Assembly: GCA_963748825.1 (NCBI GenBank)
Contig: CAVVKN010000020.1
Span: forward strand, 1 to 21,454
Origin: Methanotrichaceae archaeon
Lineage (GTDB): Archaea; Halobacteriota; Methanosarcinia; Methanotrichales; Methanotrichaceae
Direction of reading: 5' to 3'
DNA length: 21,454 bases
In this document: positions 3,510-21,454 of the stretch, in pieces
Numbering within the stretch: position 1 is the stretch's first letter
How the letters are laid out: the number at the start of each line of letters is the position of its first letter
Position numbers and translations under genes: made by a program
Notes under the pieces: model-generated
Told to the model about the DNA's origin: nothing
What the model saw: only the letters and a program-made list of their open reading frames with translations
The model's database searches: none

Positions 3510-3566
3510 TCATCTGCACACGCTCACCAATCGGCTGACTGCGTCGCTTGTTATCATGCCTATTAC
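3510..3566 (-). pseudogene. 3' remnant of a CBS-domain protein, probably homoserine O-acetyltransferase (MetX) with C-terminal CBS domains
   Basis: The minus strand reads [18 protein letters not shown]-stop, the 'GxIT..D' end of a CBS domain, directly abutting the metY fragment. The MetX assignment is inferred from the metY-metX(CBS) arrangement in Methanomicrobia. Confidence 0.5.
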
Positions 3567-3815
3567 CCATAAGTGCCGCCGCAAAGGTTGTTGGCGGAAA
3601 CGATTTCATCCCCCACCTGGGTGATGGCTAGAAGCGCCAGGGAAATAGCGGCTTGGCCGGATGCCGCGGCCAGGGCGGCATTGCCACCTTCCAGGGCTGC
3701 AATGCGTTTCTCGAAGACATCACTGGTCGGGTTCACGATTCTGGTGTAGATGTTGCCCAATCCTTCAAGGCAAAGAGATTCGCAGCATGGTCTTGCTCCT
3801 AAAGACGTAGGACGC
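3563..3815 (-). pseudogene. metY: Fragment of O-acetylhomoserine sulfhydrylase (MetY/CysD family)
   Basis: [64 protein letters not shown], preceded in shifted frames by ASYVFRS and [10 protein letters not shown]. The start and about 80% of the protein are missing. Confidence 0.85.
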
Positions 3816-3820
3816 AGCCA

Positions 3821-3916
3821 GGTATAGACAGGATAGCGCCGGATAGGTTTGACTTGATAGGCAGCCTCATCGCCCTGATAGGAGTAATAATCATCATGTA
3901 CTGGCCGCTGGCTTGA
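3821..3916 (+). pseudogene. C-terminal fragment of a YnfA/UPF0060 small membrane protein
   Basis: The plus strand reads [31 protein letters not shown]-stop, matching the last helix of YnfA (PDrfDliG..ialiGv.iImywPR). No 5' part is present. Confidence 0.7.
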
Positions 3917-4010
3917 GCCAGGAGCTTGGGATCTGACTTGGCATCTTGGGCCTATTTTATGGAATGCGGCTCTTTGTGACATCTACCGCTACCATCAGAG
4001 CGACTCGGTT

Positions 4011-4496: not shown

Positions 4497-4549
4497 ATCT
4501 ATACTTCCCGTTGAACAAACCTTTCAAAAAGTTAATATTTATATATTAT

Positions 4550-5557
4550 CGAGTACGAACCTGCCCAATTTTTGGCGTTCTCGGATTACAGATTCTTGAT
4601 CAATTTCGAGATCAGATTCAATCGCATACTGATAAATTCGCGCTTCATCCTTCTTCGGCCTACCCCTCTTTTTTTCTGCACGCTCTAAAATAGAAGAGGC
4701 CCCCAGGTCTTTAAGCTTGAATAGGGGATGATCCGAAATCCATTTCTTTGCAGCGGCTATGGCATCTGGTTCACAAGCGTACCGTTGACGTTTCAGAGAA
4801 TTGAGATCTTTCTGGGCATCATCCATCTTTTTTTGAAGGTTTTTATCAAAGGTCTTCTCCTTTTGCGCCTGCATCTCCTGGGACCAGAAAACCGCAGCTT
4901 TCTGAGGAATGCCTCCATAATTCAGATATGTAGTATGGAACGCATAGCGTGGATCCGTTGCAGGTATCATTTCCAATTCTGCTGAAATTAAAGCCTTTGC
5001 TGCCCCTACAGTTTCAGGAATACGAGTGATCCAATGCAGATCTTTTCCCAGTAGCTTGAGATTTTCTTCAGAATAGATAGCGCTATCTGCAACCCAATAA
5101 TTTGAATCATCGAAGGAAATGGACTCTCTCAGTCTCTGGATCATATCTGGCAAACTTTTTTTATCAGATTTGTTTCCGGAGAACGACTGCATAAAAAGAG
5201 GAACTCCATGTTGATTCACGACCATTCCCAGAACGAAACGCTTAAGGTCCATTCGGTTATCTTTGGCATGGCCAAAAGTAATTTTAATTGAATCTGTTCC
5301 ATCTGGAGCATCACCTTCATACTTTCCAAACATCGAGAAGTTTGTCGTATCCACATGTAGTAGATGCGTTTCCTCGGTCATTTTGTTCATGACTTGCAGA
5401 GCAAGCTCGTTAAACAGCTCCGTTGGACCATAGTCAAAAATTGTATCTAATGTTCGCGATAATGTGTCATCATTCAGGTTAGATGGCGAAATGCCTTCTC
5501 CCAATAAACTCTCGGTAGGAAGACCTATGAAAAAATTGGAGTAAAAATAGAGACGAG
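4550..5557 (-). mobile_element. Truncated IS1634-family transposase fragment (internal ~1 kb)
   Basis: DDE-type motifs HVDTTNFS, GHAKDNRMDLKRF and VADSAIYS. About 98% identical by eye (roughly 20 substitutions) to 20234-21241. Lacks the C-terminus and the cognate TIRs. Confidence 0.9.
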
Positions 5558-5829: not shown

Positions 5830-6339
5830 TCAAATCCCCTGGGGAACTTGAAGTTGTCTTTGTCCCAGCTCCTTATCCGCTGCCTCCAAAGCCGCCCTGT
5901 CATTTCCTGCGGCTTTGACTTTGTTCAGCACGTTGTCAGAGGACTCTTCCTCTTCCACCTGCTCTTTCACATACCACTGCAGGAAGTCCTTCGTCACCTC
6001 GTCCTTTTCCTTCTCGGCCACCTTGACAAGAGTCTGAATGAGCCCGGTCACTACGCGCTCATGATCCCAGACATGCTGGAAAGCCTGTAGGGGCGAGGCC
6101 CAGGCGAACTGGGGTGCCTCCACAGCCAGCATCTTAGCTCTGCCGCCTTTTCCGGCTGCGTAGTCGAGCATCCTCATGGTATGAACCAGCTCCTCGCCGG
6201 CCTGCAGTCTCATCCAATGGGCAAAGCCCTTCATATTAATAGACTCGAAATAATAGGACATGGAGAGATAGAGATAGGAGGAGTACAATTCCCTATTCGC
6301 CTGAACATTCAAAGCTTCATTCATATTTTCACTGAGCAT
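5830..6339 (-). CDS. ftnA: Non-heme ferritin
   Basis: LNVQANRELYSSYLYLSMS...GFAHWMRLQAGEELVH...HERVVT...FLQWYVKEQVEEE contains the ferroxidase-centre residues of prokaryotic ferritins. Confidence 0.93.
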   Translation of the reverse strand: MLSENMNEALNVQANRELYSSYLYLSMSYYFESINMKGFAHWMRLQAGEELVHTMRMLDYAAGKGGRAKMLAVEAPQFAWASPLQAFQHVWDHERVVTGLIQTLVKVAEKEKDEVTKDFLQWYVKEQVEEEESSDNVLNKVKAAGNDRAALEAADKELGQRQLQVPQGI

Positions 6340-6381
6340 GGCAATACACCCTAATCCTCAATTCGCAAGCATTTTTCCTTT

Positions 6382-6543
6382 CTACTTCGCCTTCTCAAAC
6401 TGCTCTTTGCCTACACCGCATTCCGGACAGACCCAATCATCGGGAAGGTCCTCGAATGCCGTTCCTGGAGCGATGCCGGAGGTGGAATCTCCTTTTTCCG
6501 GATCGTAGATGTATCCGCAAACCGTACAAACATACTTATCCAT
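6382..6543 (-). CDS. rub: Rubredoxin (53 aa, not in the ORF track)
   Basis: Manual translation gives [53 protein letters not shown]-stop, with two CxxC motifs. A GGTGAG RBS lies upstream. Confidence 0.96.
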
Positions 6544-6557
6544 TTTTCACTCACCTT

Positions 6558-7412
6558 CTAAATGAAATTTTCCAGCAGCATCTTTATTTTGCTGTCTCTT
6601 TCCGATAAATTCTGCTTATATTCTGGAAATGACTGATCAAAGCGCGGCGCATCAATCTCGTAGAACTTGCCCAGAGGAATGGCAGCATCGGAGCGATCGT
6701 AGTTCCAGGAGCGAATGATCTTTTGAGCCTCCTCGAAGCTTGCAGCATCGTTGCCCTGCTCAGTGTAGGTCCACTTATTGTAGCTCTCGTACAGGTTGTT
6801 GTAAGAGACGCAGACCTGGAGAACATCCACAAAGGAAAAGCCCTTGTGCAATATCGCTTCCTTAAAGAGCTTCTGCAGCTGTTCAATGCCGTGCGTGTAG
6901 CCCCGGGCAATGTAAGACGCTCCGCTGACCAGCATCAGCTCTAGCGGATTCAAAGGATGCTCGCTTGTGCCCGCGGGCGTGGACTTGCCCTTGAAGCCCT
7001 GGGGTGATGTGGGCGTGTACTGGCCGGTGGTCAAGCCGTAGACGCGGTTGTCGTGCAGGATCATTGTAAGATCGATGTTCCTCTTGGCGGCGAAGATGAG
7101 ATGATCAAGCCCCTCTGCCAGGCTATCTCCATCTCCGGAAAAGCAGATCACCTTTAAATCGGGATTGGCGATCTTTATGGCCGAGGCCGCAGGCAGCGTT
7201 CGGCCGTGGATGGAATAGAAGCTGTTCACATTCATGTAGTCTACGATCTTGGCGTGGCAGCCGATGCCGGAGACCAGGACGACGTTTTCTATGGGGTAGC
7301 CTTCGCCGTCCAGCTCTGCCAGAACCGATCTCATGGCACTCAAGATGGAGAAGTTGCCGCAGCCGGGACACCAGGTGTTCTTAGCTGTGGTAGCCAGATC
7401 TTTAGGATTCAT
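6558..7412 (-). CDS. 2-oxoacid:ferredoxin oxidoreductase beta subunit (TPP-binding)
   Basis: WCPGCG, SGIGC, HGR, GDGD...DNRVYGLTTGQ and QVCVSYN motifs. Start overlaps the alpha-subunit stop (ATGA). Confidence 0.93.
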   Translation of the reverse strand: MNPKDLATTAKNTWCPGCGNFSILSAMRSVLAELDGEGYPIENVVLVSGIGCHAKIVDYMNVNSFYSIHGRTLPAASAIKIANPDLKVICFSGDGDSLAEGLDHLIFAAKRNIDLTMILHDNRVYGLTTGQYTPTSPQGFKGKSTPAGTSEHPLNPLELMLVSGASYIARGYTHGIEQLQKLFKEAILHKGFSFVDVLQVCVSYNNLYESYNKWTYTEQGNDAASFEEAQKIIRSWNYDRSDAAIPLGKFYEIDAPRFDQSFPEYKQNLSERDSKIKMLLENFI

Positions 7413-9142
7413 GCCAGGGCCCTCCCCAGCTGTGCCAGAAGATCTTCCACGGAAAAAGGTCTGCCGTCATATTTCAAAATTTGGTCCTGGGCCTGGATCT
7501 TGATGCCATAAAAGCCGGCCAGCCTGGCCAGTTGGCCGGTCGAGTTGCATTCTACTGCAAGGAGCCTCTCGACTCCCTGCAGGGCATCCTTTAGCTTTCT
7601 TTCCGGGAAGGGCGAGAGGACCAGCACCTGAATCACGCGTAGTCCCAATTTTATAGCCGCCTCCATGCATACTCCTTTATTCGAACCCCAGCAGAGCAGG
7701 GCGGTCTTGCTCTTTTCGTCCCCAAAGACCTTCACAGTCTCGTATCTCTCCAGATCAGCGGCCATGAATTGGGCTTTTCTCTGGCGTTTGTCGCTGGTCT
7801 CCCTGGTTATTTGTGGGTCCTCAGAGGTTATGCCACTTTCATCGTGAGTGTAGCTGTCCGTCTTAATCACCTGCCCTTTTTGAGGGGGGAAGGCCAGAGG
7901 CGAGACGCCCGTTTCCGTGTAAATGTAGCGCTTGTAAGTTCCCTGTCCATCCCAGAGCAGAGGAGCCTGCTGTGCTTGCTCTTTCAGCTCGCTTGTCAAG
8001 TCACCTGCATTATCAATGTCAAAGCTGTACTGGCTCTCGCTGACGGTCTTGTCGGTGAGAACGAATGAGGGCACCTGAAACTTCCAGGCCATATTCAGGG
8101 CCACGCAGGACCAGTAGTAAGCCTCTTCTGCGTCTCCTGGTGCGACTATAAATCTGGGAAACTCCCCCTGACCGGCATTGAGTACGAAGTGCAGATCGCC
8201 CTGCGCTGTGTAGGTGGGAAGACCCGTGGAAGGTCCCGTTCTCTGGGCCATGACCACTACCACCGGCATCTCCGCCATGCCTGCCAGGCTGAGGCCTTCG
8301 GTCATGAGGCAAAATCCGCCGCCCGACGTCCCCACGGCCGCTTTGACCCCGGCATAGGCGAACCCTTGGGCCATGAGCATCACTGCGATCTCGCTTTCCG
8401 GATGAATCACCTTGAGGCCGAACTGCGGGCCAAATTTTGCCATGAAGTCCAGCACGCTTGATGAAGGAGTCATGGGATAGGCGACGTAAGCCCCCAGCCC
8501 GGCTTTGATCAGTCCCAGGCTGATGGCCTGGTTGCCGGTTATGATAGGAAGAGGCTTTTGGTCTTGCTTCTCCAAATGACTATCTGCACGATCTGCACCG
8601 CTATCTATGTGACAGAACTCTGTCGCCTGGTCGTAGCCCTGCCGGGCCACAAGCAAATTCAGTTCCAGCTTCTTTGGCATATGTTTTTTTAAGACATCTT
8701 CCAGGACGGCCCAGTCTATGCCCACAACCTTGCAGTATCCGCCTATTATGCAGGTATTCTTCATGACCGCGGGGGCAGCCGCCTCCTTCAGGATCTGGGT
8801 GATGGTAAGGCCGCAGCCCTTATGCTTTGTATCGTCAAGTTTTACCTTATCTGCATCGTAAATCACAAAGGAGCTATCCTTGAGACGGCTCGTGTGCTTC
8901 TCTACAGTCTCCTGGTTGAGAGCTACCAGGACATCGATCTGGTCCATGTGAGCAGCGATCTTTTGTCTGGAAGCTCTGACTAAAGAGAAATTATGCCCAC
9001 CCCTGATAAGGGAGGGATAGTCGTAGTACATGTAAATGTGATAGCCAAGACGGCTAAAGAGGCGAGACACGGTTATTCCGGCCTCATTTATGCCGTCACC
9101 GGCTATACCACCGATAAGTGTAGAAAAATTATCCATCTTCAT
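7409..9142 (-). CDS. 2-oxoacid:ferredoxin oxidoreductase alpha subunit (fused gamma-alpha, KorA type)
   Basis: GGIAGDGI, YPSLIRGGHN, YPMTPSS, ESEIA, TSGGGFCLMTEG, QRTGPSTGLPT and KYDGRPF motifs. Confidence 0.93.
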   Translation of the reverse strand: MKMDNFSTLIGGIAGDGINEAGITVSRLFSRLGYHIYMYYDYPSLIRGGHNFSLVRASRQKIAAHMDQIDVLVALNQETVEKHTSRLKDSSFVIYDADKVKLDDTKHKGCGLTITQILKEAAAPAVMKNTCIIGGYCKVVGIDWAVLEDVLKKHMPKKLELNLLVARQGYDQATEFCHIDSGADRADSHLEKQDQKPLPIITGNQAISLGLIKAGLGAYVAYPMTPSSSVLDFMAKFGPQFGLKVIHPESEIAVMLMAQGFAYAGVKAAVGTSGGGFCLMTEGLSLAGMAEMPVVVVMAQRTGPSTGLPTYTAQGDLHFVLNAGQGEFPRFIVAPGDAEEAYYWSCVALNMAWKFQVPSFVLTDKTVSESQYSFDIDNAGDLTSELKEQAQQAPLLWDGQGTYKRYIYTETGVSPLAFPPQKGQVIKTDSYTHDESGITSEDPQITRETSDKRQRKAQFMAADLERYETVKVFGDEKSKTALLCWGSNKGVCMEAAIKLGLRVIQVLVLSPFPERKLKDALQGVERLLAVECNSTGQLARLAGFYGIKIQAQDQILKYDGRPFSVEDLLAQLGRALA

Positions 9143-9721
9143 CTCCTGAATGGATCTATTCCAGTTAATGCTGCCTTTTGCGATGCGGATTTATGTGTTA
9201 TTGCACAGCAGTACTATGCATATTATTGTGGCTAACCGTATTTAAAAACTTTGTAGCAATCGATGAATAATGCAATTAAAACGAAGTGAAAAGATCTTAA
9301 AGATATTCTATAACTTTGGAGAGATGAAACCAATCGACTTGATTTATTGACTTGGCATTGCTGGTTCGGGCGGCGTCTGCCAAATAGAGCATACGGCCTT
9401 CGATATCCGTTGGGACAGGCAACATCAATAGAAACCAAGCTACTGATCTACATAGTACCAAGCTTTTTATCAGAGTCGAACGATAATTATTAGGGCCTCT
9501 TCTCTCGCCAGTTAACCTTTTTAAATTCCAAAGTCTATTGTATTACTATTATCTTGGTAATCAAGTATAAATTTTTCGGTTTAATGATACGGATTTTTAA
9601 AATGCTGCAAGAAAATACTTATAGAATAAAACTCAATAATATCATCAGGCGAACAGAATGAATTCATTTTAGGGAAGAATTCCGCAAGCTCTGGCCAAAG
9701 AGCAATAAGAGATGGGAGGTT

Positions 9722-9970
9722 TTGAGAACGGATCAGAATTTAGCTCATGATGCTGAGCTTGACTGCGTGGGCCTCTTTTGCCCCATGCCCATCGCGAAGA
9801 CCAAGGAAGAGATTGAGAATATCGAGGTGGGACAGGTCTTGAAAGTAGAAGCGGACGATCCTGCTGCTGAGGAAGACATCACCCGGTGGGCCAAGCGAGC
9901 GGGCCATGAGGTCGTCAGGCTTGAGAAGTCCGGAAATATAATCACCTTTTGGATAAGAAGGAAGAAGTAA
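9722..9970 (+). CDS. tusA: TusA/SirA family sulfurtransferase
   Basis: LDCVGLFCPMPI (CPxP persulfide motif), GQVLKVEADDPAAEEDI..WA...GH. GGAGG RBS before a TTG start. Confidence 0.9.
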   Translation: MRTDQNLAHDAELDCVGLFCPMPIAKTKEEIENIEVGQVLKVEADDPAAEEDITRWAKRAGHEVVRLEKSGNIITFWIRRKK

Positions 9971-9990
9971 GAGTGCATGGTGATAGTATT

Positions 9991-10350
9991 ATGAGCAAAA
10001 TCCTTTATGTTCAGACCAGCGGCCTGGATACGCCGGAAAGACTTTACGCGCCCTTTATCCTGGGAATGACGGCTCGGGCGATGGACGTGGATGCCTCCAT
10101 CTTTTTCATGATCAAGGGCATAACCGCCATGAAAAAAGGTGAGGCGGAAAAGATCAAGATAGGAAGCTTTCCTCCCCTCAAGGAGGTCATCGACCAGGCC
10201 CTTGCCTCCGGCGTGAAGATGTACATCTGCGAGCAGAGCACACAGCTCCTCGGCATTGCCCGGGGTGATTTCATACCAGAGGCCAAGATCGCAGGTGCGG
10301 GAACCCTAAACGATCTGGCGCTGGATGCAGACTCGACGATCAGCTTCTAA
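9991..10350 (+). CDS. DsrE/DsrF-like family sulfur carrier
   Basis: PERLYAPFILGMTARAMDVDASIFFMIKG...GVKMYICEQS...AGAGTL is the DsrE fold with its conserved Cys. Start moved from 9949 to the ATG at 9991, which follows a GGTGAT RBS. Confidence 0.85.
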   Translation: MSKILYVQTSGLDTPERLYAPFILGMTARAMDVDASIFFMIKGITAMKKGEAEKIKIGSFPPLKEVIDQALASGVKMYICEQSTQLLGIARGDFIPEAKIAGAGTLNDLALDADSTISF

Positions 10351-10465
10351 GGATTTTTAAAGGCAAGAGCCTTGCCGGCAATAAGCATTCTTTGGGGCAA
10401 GAGTCAAGGAAACACAAAACCTAGATACAAGAGGCATTTTAAGTTCAAGAGGCGAAGAGGCAATT

Positions 10466-11620
10466 ATGTGTGGAATTAATCTCGACTACCAGTCCGCGTC
10501 TCCTGTGGATCCCAGGGTTGCCGAATTTGCAGAGCGCTTTCTTTCCAGTGATTTTGGCAATCCTTCTGCTCTGCATTCCCGGGGCCTGGCGGCAAAAGCC
10601 GCTCTGGAAGAGGCGCGGGCAAAAGTGGCGGAACTGATAGGCGCGGAAGGCCCGGAGACCATTGTCTTCACAGCAGGCGCCACCGAGGCCAACAACCTGG
10701 CCATCCGGGGAGCGGTGCTGAGGAACGCGGCAAAGGGCAAGAAGCTGCTGGCCAGCAGCATTGAACACATCTCCGTGCTTAATCCCCTGAAGGATCTGAA
10801 GAAGGGCGGCTTTGAACTAACCCTGGTCCCGGTGGACAGCATGGGCATCATCGATCTGGCGGCCCTGGAGGGGCAGCTCAGCAAGGAGACGGTCCTCACA
10901 TCGGTTATGTACGCCAACAGCGAGATTGGAACCATTGAGCCCATAAAAGAGGTGAGCGATCTTGTGCACGAGAAGGGGCTCTTCCTGCACGTGGATGCGA
11001 CAGCAGCGGCAGGTAAGATTGCAGTTGATGTGCAAAAGGACGGCATTGATCTCCTCACCCTTTCCTCTAACGATCTTTACGGTCCCCAGGGTGCGGGCGC
11101 GCTTTACGTGAAACCGGGTGTTCGCATTCAGCCAGTACTTTTTGGCGGCGGTCAGGAAAAAGGCCTGCGGCCCGGTACCGAGAATCTCTATGCTCTGGCG
11201 GGATTTGGTGAAGCGGCAAGGCTGGCGAAACTGGAAAAGGCAGGGGAGAGCGAGCGATTGCAGGCCATCCGGGATGGGCTGATTAAGGAGATCCTCAAGA
11301 TCGAGGAGTCACATCTCACCGGCCATCCGACGCGGCGGCTCCCGCATCATGCCAGCTTCCGCTTTAGCCGGATTGAGGGGGAGAGCATTCTCCTCACCAT
11401 GGATGTCATGTTCAACATTCAGGTATCCACGGGCTCGGCCTGCTCCTCACGCACCCTGGAGCCATCCCATGTGCTTTTGGCCATAGGCTTAAAGCATGAA
11501 GAAGCGCATGGCTCCATGGTCACGACCATGGGACGGGAAAATAGCTCCGACCAGATACCAGCCATCGCCAATGCGACGAAGAAGACAGTAGAAAGGCTGA
11601 GGGCTCTCTCTCCGCTTTAA
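10466..11620 (+). CDS. iscS: IscS/NifS-like protein (class V PLP fold) with Asp replacing the Schiff-base Lys
   Basis: FGNPSALH, GATEANN, IEHISV, STGSACSS (Cys326) and PSHVL are present. The PLP motif reads SSNDLYGPQG instead of SxHKxxGPKG. Confidence 0.92.
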   Translation: MCGINLDYQSASPVDPRVAEFAERFLSSDFGNPSALHSRGLAAKAALEEARAKVAELIGAEGPETIVFTAGATEANNLAIRGAVLRNAAKGKKLLASSIEHISVLNPLKDLKKGGFELTLVPVDSMGIIDLAALEGQLSKETVLTSVMYANSEIGTIEPIKEVSDLVHEKGLFLHVDATAAAGKIAVDVQKDGIDLLTLSSNDLYGPQGAGALYVKPGVRIQPVLFGGGQEKGLRPGTENLYALAGFGEAARLAKLEKAGESERLQAIRDGLIKEILKIEESHLTGHPTRRLPHHASFRFSRIEGESILLTMDVMFNIQVSTGSACSSRTLEPSHVLLAIGLKHEEAHGSMVTTMGRENSSDQIPAIANATKKTVERLRALSPL

Positions 11621-11632
11621 AGGTGAAAAGAA

Positions 11633-12085
11633 ATGGCACAGATTGGTTACTCCAAGAAAGTTATGGAACACTTCATGAACCCCAGGAATGTGGGGGTGAT
11701 TGAGAATCCGGACGGATATGGACAGGTGGGAAATCCCGTCTGCGGCGATCTCATGGAGATATTCATCACCGTCAAGGAAGACAAGGTAGACGACATCAAG
11801 TTTCGCACCTTCGGTTGCGGCTCGGCCATAGCCGTCTCCAGCATGGTCACGGAAATGGCCAAGGGCAAGACGCTGGACGAGGCCATCAAGATCACCCGCA
11901 AGGATGTGGCAGACGAGCTGGGGGGCTTGCCGCCCCAAAAGATGCATTGCTCCAACCTGGGGGCGGATGCACTGCATGCGGCCATCAAGGACTACTGGGT
12001 GAAGATCGGCAAGATCAAGCCGGAGGAAGCGAAGCCTGAGGAAGAAGGCCATGAGGGCGAAGAGGGAGAGAGCTGCGGGACGTAA
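11633..12085 (+). CDS. iscU: Fe-S cluster scaffold IscU/NifU-N
   Basis: YSKKVMEHFMNPRNVG, GNPVCGD, FGCGSAIA and LPPQKMHCSNL give three Cys ligands. Acidic C-terminal tail ending in CGT. Confidence 0.95.
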   Translation: MAQIGYSKKVMEHFMNPRNVGVIENPDGYGQVGNPVCGDLMEIFITVKEDKVDDIKFRTFGCGSAIAVSSMVTEMAKGKTLDEAIKITRKDVADELGGLPPQKMHCSNLGADALHAAIKDYWVKIGKIKPEEAKPEEEGHEGEEGESCGT

Positions 12086-12120
12086 ATGATTTAATGTTAA
12101 TCTTAATGGAATGACTATTT

Positions 12121-12675
12121 ATGAGAATTGAAGATACAATCTATTTTTCTCCATCATTTAAATTTAAGGATATTGATTGGGAAAATAAAGATCAATTGAT
12201 CGAAGCGTTCAGTGATCGAGTATGCGGTTTTTATCTTAATCCTGCTGAAAAACTTAATTCTAATAAAGATGGGTTTGCTACTGGCCTATTATGCATTGCG
12301 ACAATAGATTTTCTTGCGAGAATAGCTATAGGAAAAAGAAAAAGGCCAGGCCCCAGAATTAGAGAATGGATTGAGGGAAGTATCAAAGAATTTAAAGGGA
12401 AAAATTTATCTAGTCAAAAATTTTATGAAGATTTTCGTAATGGCCTTATACATGAAGGACGAATAAAGAATGGCGGCCAATTTACTTATGATGTTTCGAG
12501 AATTTATTGTGATGATGATGTTATGCTAATAAATCCAGGAATGGTTTTAAATAGTATAAAAATATCGTTTCAAAATTACATAAGTGTTATTCAAGGCGAT
12601 GAAGATAAATTCAAGGAATTTAAAGATTTATTAAAGGATGATTTTAAAAAAGAAATTGAATTAACGCACAAATAG
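12121..12675 (+). CDS. AT-rich hypothetical protein with a HEPN-like RxxxxH motif
   Basis: 184 aa, predicted helical, with FYEDFRNGLIHEG (R106-x4-H111). GC drops sharply relative to iscU. Confidence 0.6.
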   Translation: MRIEDTIYFSPSFKFKDIDWENKDQLIEAFSDRVCGFYLNPAEKLNSNKDGFATGLLCIATIDFLARIAIGKRKRPGPRIREWIEGSIKEFKGKNLSSQKFYEDFRNGLIHEGRIKNGGQFTYDVSRIYCDDDVMLINPGMVLNSIKISFQNYISVIQGDEDKFKEFKDLLKDDFKKEIELTHK

Positions 12676-12787
12676 CATCTAATTGACGTCATCTTTGACT
12701 ACTATTTAATTCAATCCATCAGCTTTCCTTGCACACAAATGGGGTTTTTTATGCCACAATTTACGCTGACCGCATCCAGTGACTTTT

Positions 12788-12856
12788 GATGCCCTATCAT
12801 CAAGCGCGTGTGTGTGCGGGAAAGAGCGCCGGAGCCTCAGAGTTGTGTAGGGCTTG
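12788..12856 (+). repeat. Degenerate GC-rich direct repeat, copy 1 (upstream of hicB)
   Basis: Shares the ordered blocks GATGCC, CAAG, GCGCGTGTGTG, CGGGAA, CGCCGGAGCC, CAGA and AGGGCT with 13388-13506. Confidence 0.65.
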
Positions 12857-12919: not shown

Positions 12920-13135
12920 ATGCAGACATTTACAGCCGTCATCCACCGAGAAGAGGATATGTTTGTTGCCGAGTGTCCCGAAGTAGGAACTGCGAGTCAG
13001 GGAGCAACTATCGAGGGAGCGCTTGCGAACCTCAAAGAGGCTACGCAGCTTTATCTGGATGAGTTCCCCATTGATTTGAAACCTGCGCGTTCTTTTGTTA
13101 CCACCTTTGAGGTGGCCGAAATTGCCGGGACTTAG
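12920..13135 (+). CDS. hicB: HicB-family antitoxin (short form)
   Basis: FTAVIHREEDMFVAECPEVGTASQGATIEGALANLKEATQLYL is the HicB partial RNase H fold. Confidence 0.88.
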   Translation: MQTFTAVIHREEDMFVAECPEVGTASQGATIEGALANLKEATQLYLDEFPIDLKPARSFVTTFEVAEIAGT

Positions 13136-13352
13136 AAAGGTTTCGGGCGAGGAAACGGTTAAGATACTCTGCAACAAATTCGGATTTAACATTTCGGGCC
13201 AATCTGGGAGCCATGTCAGGCTCTCGAAAACGACGCCACAAGGCAAAGTGGGTACTGTAGTGCCAATGCATCCGGAGCTGAAGATTGGGACTCTCAAAAG
13301 TATTTTGAAGCTTGCCAGGATTTCTTCAGAAGAGTTCGCAGAATATCTCTAG
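13122..13352 (+). CDS. hicA: HicA-family toxin (mRNA interferase)
   Basis: VSGEETVKIL...FGF....QSGSHVRL...TVVPMHPELKIGTLKSILK. Likely TTG start at 13122 after a GAGGTG RBS, overlapping the end of hicB. Confidence 0.88.
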   Translation: MPGLRKVSGEETVKILCNKFGFNISGQSGSHVRLSKTTPQGKVGTVVPMHPELKIGTLKSILKLARISSEEFAEYL

Positions 13353-15388: not shown

Positions 15389-15736
15389 CTATAATATCGC
15401 CTGATGCTTTCCATGCACATCAATTTTTTCAGGGCTTCTCTCGCCTGCAAGGAAGCTCGACAAACCTGACCGTATGTAAGCCTCTCGCCTGTGGTTCGGA
15501 CTAGCTTTCAGATAAATGCCCGTGGTAGCCAGAGATGCATGGCCGAGTTGTGCTTGTAGATCACTCAAAGGAATTCCTGCTCCAATCGAGAACATCGCAA
15601 AGCTATGCCGCAGCATATGGAGTTGTATGCGATATCGTCCTGGCCCCTTTCGACCAGGATGCACTATCTGCTGTAATCCAGACCTACCTGCTGGCACAGC
15701 TCGATCTAAGCAGCCGCGTTGCGCCAGTATGTGCAT
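15389..15736 (-). pseudogene. C-terminal remnant of a tyrosine recombinase/integrase
   Basis: HMLRHSFA (HxxR box), QAQLGHASLATTGIY (LGH and catalytic Tyr). The N-terminal core and first Arg box are absent. Confidence 0.82.
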
Positions 15737-19820: not shown

Positions 19821-21454
19821 CCCACATTTCGCATTAACACTCCAATCCATAATATTTTTTGCAGTCCTGCCCGAGTAGCTTCAGGACCAAGTCTTGAGTC
19901 TCGCTCAGCTTTATCAGCCGGCGAATCACATGTTGGCCCTCGGTTACTATTATTAATGTTACTCTCATAAAAAGCTGGAATATCCATCTCATGGTCGGTT
20001 TTTGAGTCGGTTTTTTGAGTTGATTTGGGACACTCTGCCCAGCCTCCTTTAGTTTTCTTCGAAGCTTCCACTCTGCATACGAATAGATCAATAGGCAAAG
20101 GACCATAATCATTGCCAAGGCCTCTATGCGTGGAAACTTTTGTCTTTCAAGAAGCGGAAGCCTCTCTCTACCGCTTGCTGCCCTTTGTAATAGTTCAGCA
20201 TGGTTTCAGAATCTAGATCCAAGTCATTGCTAGCGAGTACGAACCTGCCCAATTTTTGGCGTTCTCGGATTACAGATTCTTGATCAATTTCGAGATCAGC
20301 TTCAATCGCATACTGATAAATTCGCGCTTCATACTTCTTCGGCCTATCCCTCTTTTTTTCTGCACGCTCTAAAATAGAAGAGGCCCCCAGGTCTTTAAGC
20401 TTGAAAAGAGGATGATCCGAAACCCATTTCTTTGCCGCGGCTATGGCATCTGGTTCACAAGCGTACCGTTGACGTTTCAGAGAATTGAGATCTTTCTGGG
20501 CATCACTTATCTTTTTTTGAAGGTTTTTATCAAAGGTCTTCTCCTTTTGCGCCTGCATCTCCTGGGACCAGAAAACCGCAGCTTTCTGAGGAATGCCTCC
20601 ATAATTCAGATATGTAGTATGGAACGCATAGCGTGGATCCGTTGCAGGTGTCATTTCCAGTTCTGCTGAGATCAAAGCCTTTGCTGCCCCTACAGTTTCA
20701 GGAATACGAGTGATCCAATGTAGATCTTTTCCCAGTAGCTTGAGATTTTCTTCAGAATAAATAGCGCTATCTGCGACCCAATTATTTGAATCATCGAAGG
20801 AAATGGACTCTCTCAGTCTCTGGATCATATCTGGCAAACTTTTTTTATCAGATTTGTTTCCGGAGAACGACTGCATAAAAAGAGGAACTCCATGTTGATT
20901 CACGACCATTCCCAGAACGAAACGCTTAAGGTCCATTCGGTTATCTTTGGCATGGCCAAAAGTAATTTTAATTGAATCTGTTCCATCTGGAGCATCACCT
21001 TCATACTTTCCAAACATCGAGAAGTTTGTCGTATCCACATGTAGTAGATGCGTTTCCTCGGTCATTTTGTTCATGACTTGCAGAGCAAGCTCGTTAAACA
21101 GCTCCGTTGGACCATAGTCAAAAATTGCATCTAATGTTCGCGATAATGTGTCATCATTCAGGTTAGGTGGCGAAATGCCTTCTCCCAATAAACTCTCGGT
21201 AGGAAGACCTATGAAAAAATTGGAGTAAAAATAGAGACGAGATTCATTAAAACCCAGGCCATTCAGGGCCATTGCCTTTATAATTGCGGAATGATCAAAG
21301 ATCCCTGCTACTATCCCAAAATGCTCGATGGTATTTGTCGAGATATCCATGCCACTTCCCTTCATGGAAGCATATGGTTGAGCTATTAAAAAAGATTATC
21401 CATAAAAGTCAAGGGAAATTATGAAGTGTTCAAACCGTTAATGCGAAATGTGGG
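19821..21454 (-). mobile_element. IS1634-family insertion sequence with perfect 18-bp terminal inverted repeats
   Basis: CCCACATTTCGCATTAAC at 19821-19838 and its exact reverse complement at 21437-21454 enclose the transposase. Confidence 0.93.
19834..21365 (-). pseudogene. IS1634 transposase broken by internal deletions (ORFs 20124-21365 and 19834-20118)
   Basis: HFGIVAG, LNDDTLSRTLD, HVDTT, ADSA and VERGFRFLKD, then a frame switch to RIEALAMIMVLCLLIY...PNQLKKPTQKPTMRWIFQ. The usual linker between KDKSFHA and RIEAL is missing. Confidence 0.88.

Follow-up and report, generated by a model that had tools for sequence, protein, structure and literature searches.

We analyzed a 21,454-nucleotide stretch of DNA from a Methanotrichaceae archaeon, hereafter the window, which is the whole of contig C20 in a genome that is 94.9% complete. 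The window carries a cassette of four genes, tusA, dsrE, iscS, and iscU, whose predicted products are two small sulfur carriers, a relative of cysteine desulfurases that lacks the lysine for pyridoxal 5′-phosphate (PLP), and an iron-sulfur (Fe-S) scaffold. We found that the link between tusA/dsrE and iscS recurs wherever we sampled genes for such apparently inactive ("dead") IscS proteins, a pattern of gene neighborhoods that suggests where the sulfur originates. The reading we prefer, in which we place about as much belief as doubt, is that the four genes form one operon and that persulfide sulfur from TusA and DsrE would feed an IscS-IscU module of the MIS type that acts as a scaffold only. 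The initial annotation had placed four co-oriented genes of these families here. A listing of open reading frames (ORFs), together with Pfam and NCBIfam scans, confirmed all four on the plus strand at the positions first proposed, each with a match to its family (Table 1).

To examine the neighborhoods of iscS genes, we queried 401 genomes from the phylum of the window with its IscS. At E ≤ 1e-90, 184 genomes contained a match; the listing comprised 150 matches and left out 81. Among the matches listed, all with at least 50% identity were non-Lys forms, which lack the lysine, and all at 49% or below were Lys-type. We examined the loci of all listed matches at 50% identity or above, three at 48-49%, 40 Lys-type loci spread over genera, and 30 loci from a search for relatives, and scored tusA or dsrE as linked when it lay within 1 kb upstream of iscS on the same strand. 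Both genes were linked at 56 of the 78 non-Lys phylum loci listed, tusA only at 12, dsrE only at six, and neither at four; iscU was adjacent at 76. The residue replacing the lysine was Asp at 73 of these loci, Gln at four, and Glu at one. All 59 Lys-type phylum loci had neither gene (tusA and dsrE together, 0; tusA only, 0; dsrE only, 0), with iscU adjacent at 36. Thus, tusA and/or dsrE accompanied iscS at 74/78 non-Lys loci versus 0/59 Lys-type loci. In a control that did not depend on our own profiles, Pfam detected TusA or DsrE in none of the 133 ORFs that lie upstream of iscS on its strand at the 59 Lys-type loci.

The same contrast held in a global scan, in which all species genomes were searched with an alignment of 15 Asp-type proteins (those with Asp in place of the lysine) and the best 80 loci were kept as the sample. 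Among the loci listed, tusA and/or dsrE was present at 44/45 non-Lys loci versus 0/37 Lys-type ORFs. The non-Lys loci comprised 32 with both genes, nine with tusA only, and three with dsrE only; the lone exception lies near a contig end. Archaeal titles at these loci included Methanotrichaceae, Methanocellales, Methanomicrobiaceae, Methanoperedens, Thermoplasmatota, Bathyarchaeia, and Hadarchaeota, as well as the Asgard titles Thorarchaeota and one Promethearchaeota (Loki) archaeon. Others carried the labels of bacterial bins (WOR-3, Deltaproteobacteria, Zixibacteria, Actinomycetota, and Bacillota), labels that may err. A further class, in Methanosarcinaceae, has Thr in place of the lysine; seven of its 12 loci had tusA and dsrE, one had tusA only, and four had neither. 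Gene order varied: we observed tusA-dsrE-iscS 83 times, dsrE-tusA-iscS three times, and dsrE behind iscU twice. The comparison of Asp-type with Lys-type synteny that the initial annotation had proposed as a check therefore came out in its favor, in the phylum as in the loci listed globally, and the idea that the four genes are a conserved unit was borne out. At one locus (L078, G294:C105:3895-8040), 42 nt separate a Lys-type iscS from the tusA of a divergently oriented Asp-type cassette, so that one genome holds both kinds of iscS as neighbors.

Within the genus, the three genes are gained or lost jointly. In a survey of 24 other genomes of the genus, 13 contained an Asp-type IscS. TusA was present in 13/13 genomes with this protein and 1/11 without it, and the lone exception (G010) is 78% complete and fragmentary. 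IscU was found in 22/24 genomes, including nine of the 11 that lack the tusA-dsrE-iscS trio. Because the trio can be absent while iscU stays, TusA and DsrE travel with the dead IscS and not with IscU; the proposed tie of tusA/dsrE to non-Lys iscS thus extends to their joint loss inside the genus. In two genomes (G005 and G009), a solitary iscU occupies the same site, beside the divergent 2-oxoacid:ferredoxin oxidoreductase and ferritin genes (L268 and L271, compared with window positions 5830-12085). The trio's site in G005 holds a 178-amino acid (aa) membrane-like ORF with a weak match to cytochrome b561. Two copies of Asp-type iscS are damaged: that of G017 (L022, G017:C2:30137-31290) is interrupted by TGA and TAA stops, and a second, partial copy in G021 (G021:C5:42479-43060) contains a TAG. 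The best 120 of 7875 homologs were 79-98% identical and mostly named Methanothrix.

The window IscS belongs to the Aminotran_5 family (Pfam, 1.9e-67) and scores under the NCBIfam equivalog cut-offs for both NifS (403.7 versus 530.75) and IscS (366.7 versus 643.2). Its best solved relative is the Archaeoglobus fulgidus protein named "cysteine desulfurase 2" (4eb5/4eb7/4hvk), with 4eb5_A matching residues 6-384 at 2.8e-130. The window motif S-S-N-D-L-Y-G-P aligns with S-S-N-D-I-Y-G-P of IscS2 and with S-S-N-K-I-Y-G-P of its D199K variant (4r5f). Since Asp203 aligns with Asp199 of 4eb5 and Lys199 of 4r5f, it occupies the position of the PLP lysine. The loop cysteine, Cys326 in G-S-A-C-S-S, is invariant in 15/15 aligned relatives. 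The initial annotation had described an IscS without its lysine that keeps this cysteine, and the alignments agree on both counts.

Describing the lysine as the loss captures part of the change. We took the positions with a conservation of 90% or more among 99 Lys-type sequences and compared them with the 118 sequences of the Asp clade. There, Asp replaces Lys203 in 95%, Asn replaces His202 in 100%, and Ala replaces Gln180 in 93%, while Arg352 and Asn152 are variable. Lys203 is indeed replaced, but so are these further positions. We count it as support for the relay that several active-site residues are gone together while Cys326 is nonetheless invariant. Given these replacements, we presume that the window IscS is inactive as a desulfurase and acts as a partner of IscU.

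By sequence and tree position, the window IscS is the ortholog of the crystallized, inactive A. fulgidus IscS2: it shares one 75-row clade (support 100) with L064 and L068, the latter being the match to 4eb5 at 3.4e-252. The corresponding protein of genome G199 matches 4eb5_A over all 382 residues at that value, and its gene has dsrE 13 nt upstream and iscU downstream. A paralogous second locus in G199 has tusA, dsrE, and iscU.

How many times the lysine was lost affects how the loci may be counted. FastTree placed 75 non-Lys proteins in one clade in a 141-row tree (support 100). In a 237-row tree the Asp clade comprised 119 rows (support 96), with the Thr class as its sister (support 89), and IQ-TREE on 56 rows left the backbone open. 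A single clade of all non-Lys forms was not rejected by the approximately unbiased (AU) test under LG+G4 (p-AU 0.711), and the tree constrained to that clade was better by 22 log-likelihood units. As a single origin is not rejected, we do not count non-Lys loci as independent events. One candidate for a separate loss, L133 (G042:C1:105900-112033), has S-A-H-Q, with the His kept and Gln for Lys, as well as Ala for Gln180 and Val for Arg352. It lies on a long branch outside the Asp clade, with tusA immediately upstream and iscU downstream. We did not count it as an independent loss of the lysine, since the AU test does not reject the constrained single-clade tree. What speaks for selection on the link is its retention down to ~40-50% IscS identity, through changes of gene order, and with joint gain and loss of the genes.

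The IscU had been called normal. It matches NifU_N (1.4e-49) and exceeds the cut-off of TIGR03419 (204.6 versus 187.9), with Cys37, Asp39, Cys62, and Cys106 in place; each of the three cysteines is kept in 93% or more of 114 sequences. It is the sole PF01592 match in the genome. Its C terminus (12040-12085) is an acidic tail with a single cysteine, Cys148, near the end, which is shared by Methanothrix and Archaeoglobus-type loci (L064, L068, L079, and others). Such tails are rarer beside Lys-type IscS. In two lineages (L070:1147-2478, L083:1161-2489, and L086), the cassette's IscU carries a fused domain that resembles thioredoxin reductase (Pyr_redox_2). These fusions are consistent with a need for persulfide reduction. 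In the Methanosarcinaceae Thr class (L229 and L230), IscU is instead fused to FeS_assembly_P (DUF59).

The carriers had been recognized from a CPMP motif in TusA and a cysteine in DsrE, and both features stand. TusA matches Pfam PF01206 (6.6e-26; 90.4 bits versus a cut-off of 28.6), although it falls below the NCBIfam TusA equivalog cut-off (55.9 versus 78). Its Cys-Pro-Met-Pro spans residues 20-23, Cys20 is present in 73/73 cassette orthologs, and its best solved relative is E. coli TusA (3lvj_C, 1.4e-9). The cassette tusA is the sole PF01206 match in the genome. DsrE matches PF02635 (6.3e-20; 71.9 bits versus a cut-off of 22.7). Its ORF as listed begins at TTG 9949, overlapping tusA; because the ortholog consensus begins MSKILYVQ, the start is likely ATG 9991. 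In the resulting 119-aa form, Cys80 is conserved in 98% of 61 orthologs. The best solved relative is 3mc3 (3e-17), with the sulfur-binding cysteine aligned, and part of PMC11094781 identifies this structure as the trimeric DsrE3A of Sulfolobus solfataricus, SSO1125. DsrE scored 36.1 bits against the NCBIfam DsrE2 model NF047629, whose cut-off is 210. Elsewhere in the genome (G000:C22:66285-66976), a tandem pair of further DsrE-family ORFs might be TusBCD/DsrEFH-like.

The gaps between the genes are 20 nt (tusA-dsrE, from start 9991), 115 nt (dsrE-iscS), and 12 nt (iscS-iscU). Two studies' RNA libraries contain contigs of 2221 and 2235 nt, ~96% identical to the window, that extend from within tusA to shortly beyond iscU and bridge all three junctions, which fits a single transcript. 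In contigs of 4/4 RNA-library runs, positions 10355-10465 are missing, with AATGAC in their stead. The dsrE-iscS gap of genus orthologs is 0-56 nt, versus 119 nt for the window in that comparison. Because all four runs carry the six other letters, we regard the 111-nt spacer as particular to this genome. It contains four CAAGAG words, occurs once in the genome, and matches no Rfam family.

From these observations we propose a relay in four steps. TusA Cys20 and the DsrE3A-like Cys80 would bear sulfane sulfur as protein persulfides, most likely loaded from inorganic sulfane sulfur that derives from sulfide, such as polysulfide or persulfides. The carriers would then pass sulfur to Cys326 in the mobile loop of the dead IscS, a step opposite in direction to the IscS-to-TusA transfer of E. 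coli. The loop cysteine would reach the IscU site and double as a cluster ligand, as has been shown for the A. fulgidus ortholog. Finally, an electron donor would reduce the sulfur to sulfide, and a [2Fe-2S] cluster would form on IscU. There are precedents for the loading: according to the relevant parts of PMC11094781, TusA and DsrE3 homologs accept sulfur from polysulfide and transfer it to each other in vitro, and excerpts of that paper and PMC4175335 describe loading from polysulfide or tetrathionate and passing on of the sulfur. A predicted complex of IscS with TusA scored 0.04 versus a mark of 0.32 in a run made without controls, and counts neither way.

Several observations weigh against the relay. 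The cassette is dispensable in the genus, and genomes in which it was not found include four that are 99, 95, 94, and 91% complete. Neither carrier gene is present at four of the 78 phylum non-Lys loci or at four of the 12 Thr-class loci, and dsrE is wanting at 12 of the phylum non-Lys loci. The TusA and DsrE profiles of the locus scan were derived from cassette members, and a single ancient event, with later retention, may underlie the contrast between loci. The RNA-library contigs are no proof of one transcript, as such libraries can hold DNA. Moreover, the organism has other Fe-S genes: a Lys-type IscS with an S-A-H-K motif and no adjacent iscU (C5:14340-15554), a SufS-like gene on C9, and one SufB gene. 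With these present, neither cysteine independence nor a housekeeping role of the cassette is established. The initial annotation had called the relay cysteine-independent, a description that cannot be claimed for this organism because of the Lys-type IscS, SufS-like, and SufB genes.

These genes also allow for a shuttle in which cysteine is the source. The Lys-type IscS (C5) or the SufS-like protein (C9) would generate a persulfide, which TusA and DsrE would carry to the dead IscS-IscU. We consider this arrangement unlikely without dismissing it. In its favor, a Lys-type IscS with no adjacent iscU and a SufS-like gene coexist with a sole IscU, that of the cassette. It also has a parallel in E. 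coli, where IscS loads TusA (in the portion of PMC3397948 that deals with it; complex 3lvj). Among five cassette genomes checked, three had SufS-like or Lys-type genes too. In the other two, G199 and G082, however, the non-Lys copies are the only strong PF00266 matches; the next matches reach at most 101 bits, and the two inspected lack the cysteine loop. Since all strong matches in G199 and G082 are non-Lys, a canonical desulfurase is no obligatory donor for the cassette. Lys-type iscS also never adjoins tusA/dsrE (0/59 in the phylum and 0/37 globally, among the loci listed), a separation that speaks against the shuttle.

The cassette could alternatively be a stress module for back-up Fe-S assembly or repair, or for the handling of sulfane sulfur after exposure to oxidants, with a role analogous to bacterial SUF and with TusA and DsrE capturing sulfane sulfur that arises where sulfide meets oxidants. 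By eye, and with no matched background, oxygen-defense genes lie within 1.2 kb at 10 of the 45 global non-Lys loci listed (flanks of L149-L206: rubrerythrin, peroxiredoxin, desulfoferrodoxin, superoxide dismutase, flavodiiron-type, and hemerythrin/ScdA genes). The count rises to 14/45 once pyridine-nucleotide-disulfide oxidoreductases and ferredoxin-thioredoxin reductase are included, again by eye. In the window, 3.4 kb separate the cassette from a ferritin gene, and the cassette is accessory in the genus. However, the neighbor counts lack a matched control, the Lys-type comparison covers upstream same-strand ORFs only, some of the counted loci are close kin, and the window has no adjacent oxygen-defense gene; we therefore regard a stress module as improbable. 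We think it more improbable still that the unit, by way of TusA and DsrE, donates sulfur for tRNA thiolation or for the synthesis of molybdopterin or thiamine, with IscS-IscU as the upstream partner. TusA and DsrE-family proteins (TusBCD) do serve thiolation in E. coli, as passages of PMC3397948 describe, and the cassette TusA is the only one in the genome. Yet this IscS, by its predicted active site, could not form the starting persulfide, and neither the cassette nor the listed flanks contain a TusE, MnmA, or ThiI-type gene. Genus members without the trio also lack TusA, yet they would need those cofactors. Finally, tusA and dsrE might have come to lie beside an ancestral non-Lys iscS by chance and simply been retained with no joint function. 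That a single origin of the non-Lys forms is not rejected would permit this, but the link holds to ~40-50% IscS identity across several archaeal phyla and some bacterial labels. It also outlasts rearrangement of gene order, and the three genes come and go jointly while iscU stays. Chance inheritance is, in our judgment, very improbable indeed.

A broader version of the relay would make the cassette an ancient and widespread pathway of anaerobes, in which a desulfurase turned into a persulfide receiver handles relayed sulfane sulfur, mainly for back-up or repair after oxidants. Relayed sulfane sulfur, and not cysteine or free sulfide, would then be the material of the Fe-S clusters. We hold this tentatively and think it rather doubtful. 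If true, such an oxidant back-up pathway would account for the oxygen-defense neighbors and for the reductase fusions on IscU.

Part of the system has precedents. In the sections we cite, A. fulgidus IscS2 is described as inactive, with its cysteine ligating a [2Fe-2S] cluster on IscU (PMC8918507, PMC13066941, PMC7585200). Sulfide is the guessed sulfur source of this pair (section 10 of PMC8918507, and part of PMC7585200), and the same section 10 raises the question of how A. fulgidus IscS-IscU assembles clusters without desulfurase activity. The pair (4EB5, 4EB7, 4HVK; D199K, 4R5F) resembles the window in its clade, Asn-Asp motif, loop cysteine, and adjacent iscU. It differs in that IscS2 is ~53-55% identical to the window protein and that the published work, in the parts cited, concerns the pair alone. 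The A. fulgidus-type loci examined here comprise an IscS2 locus with dsrE and a second locus with tusA and dsrE. Because the window IscS is orthologous to the solved, inactive IscS2, the Lys-less IscS-IscU pair was already known. The view that the unit is uncharacterized therefore fails for the pair and holds for its link to tusA/dsrE, which we did not find in print. Our literature search yielded no paper tying tusA/dsrE to a Lys-less iscS, although the original MIS/SMS paper, a TusA review, and Fig. S1 of PMC7585200 might show this context. Term searches for the link in the accessible text of PMC12192291 and PMC13066941 were negative. In the literature searched, the specific coupling to TusA and a DsrE3-like protein is undescribed, beyond "genes of unknown function."

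Other known systems share elements with the cassette. The M. acetivorans isc1 genes (IscS1, MA0808; IscU1, MA0807) are similar in that loci with the G-S-A-C-F-S loop motif have upstream tusA and dsrE in 7/12 cases. They differ in the replacement of Lys by Thr with the His kept, in the fusion of IscU to a DUF59-type domain, and in IscS identity to the window protein (~40-44%). The E. coli IscS-TusA-TusBCD-TusE-MnmA relay (3LVJ) likewise combines IscS, TusA, and a DsrE-family carrier and transfers persulfide from cysteine to cysteine. Its IscS, however, is an active donor and its destination is tRNA, whereas in the window IscS is apparently dead, IscU is present, and the proposed direction is reversed; in contrast to the E. 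coli relay, no TusE or MnmA is linked to the window cassette. In Metallosphaera cuprina (DsrE3A/TusA) and in sHdr systems (TusA/DsrE3B/DsrE3C), a small TusA also stands beside a single-Cys DsrE3-type protein, as excerpts of PMC4175335 and PMC11094781 describe. Those carriers feed dissimilatory sulfur oxidation through the sHdr complex, whereas the partner in the window is an Fe-S scaffold and the organisms are strict anaerobes.

The window also resembles MIS in having an IscS/IscU pair without chaperones, and no chaperone, ferredoxin, or carrier families, as in the definition of MIS, were found among the other ORFs of the 21-kb window. MIS is described, in the text of PMC12192291 available, with a working cysteine desulfurase and no further components, whereas the window desulfurase is predicted to be dead and has two carriers attached. 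SMS reportedly uses sulfide directly (parts of PMC13066941 and PMC12192291), and the window genome has a SufB gene as well. Against this background, the link to two persulfide carriers names candidate sulfur donors, and it holds beside the crystallized protein itself. If the relay is correct, it would join cysteine desulfuration and the direct use of sulfide as a third sulfur route into Fe-S assembly, and would be an example of an enzyme converted to a sulfur acceptor. The proteins concerned already express and crystallize, and the Methanosarcina host of isc1 is genetically tractable.

Table 1. Cassette genes and associated intervals in the window
Feature	Coordinates	Strand	Description
Upstream intergenic region	9143..9721	.	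Between divergent 2-oxoacid:ferredoxin oxidoreductase alpha gene and tusA
tusA	9722..9970	+	82-aa TusA-family sulfur carrier; C-P-x-P cysteine is Cys20
dsrE	9991..10350	+	119-aa DsrE-family protein, DsrE3A-like; single conserved cysteine Cys80
dsrE-iscS spacer	10355..10465	.	111 nt, particular to this genome
iscS (MisS-type)	10466..11620	+	Lacks PLP lysine (Asn202-Asp203 instead of His-Lys); loop Cys326 present
iscU	11633..12085	+	150-aa Fe-S scaffold; Cys37, Asp39, Cys62, Cys106

The intergenic region upstream of tusA is presumed, from its position, to contain the cassette promoter. The ORF listing gave no long ORF of a known family there, the G+C content is 0.41 in the bin 9001-10000, and a GGAGG lies ~7 nt ahead of the TTG start of tusA. 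A scan for sigma-70-type promoters, a signal that is not applicable to an archaeon, found eight, no more than the level of shuffled sequence (mean 5.1). No Rfam match at E ≤ 1 was detected across 9100-12800. Directly after iscU, in a low-GC stretch (0.37), lies a 184-aa ORF (12121-12675) with no Pfam or NCBIfam match and no counterpart at the other 29 loci of the relatives comparison, which include 13 genus cassette loci. At the other end of the window, an 840-aa ORF (3-2525) is open at the contig start and has no Pfam match at E ≤ 0.001. The window also contains mobile or broken genes (12920-13352; 4539-5504; 20124-21365; 15389-15736; 3563-3982) and is rich in them: a gene for a HicA toxin preceded by a small partner, two transposases of the IS4-like type (DUF4277+DDE), part of an integrase, and a 139-aa piece of a PLP enzyme of Cys/Met metabolism.

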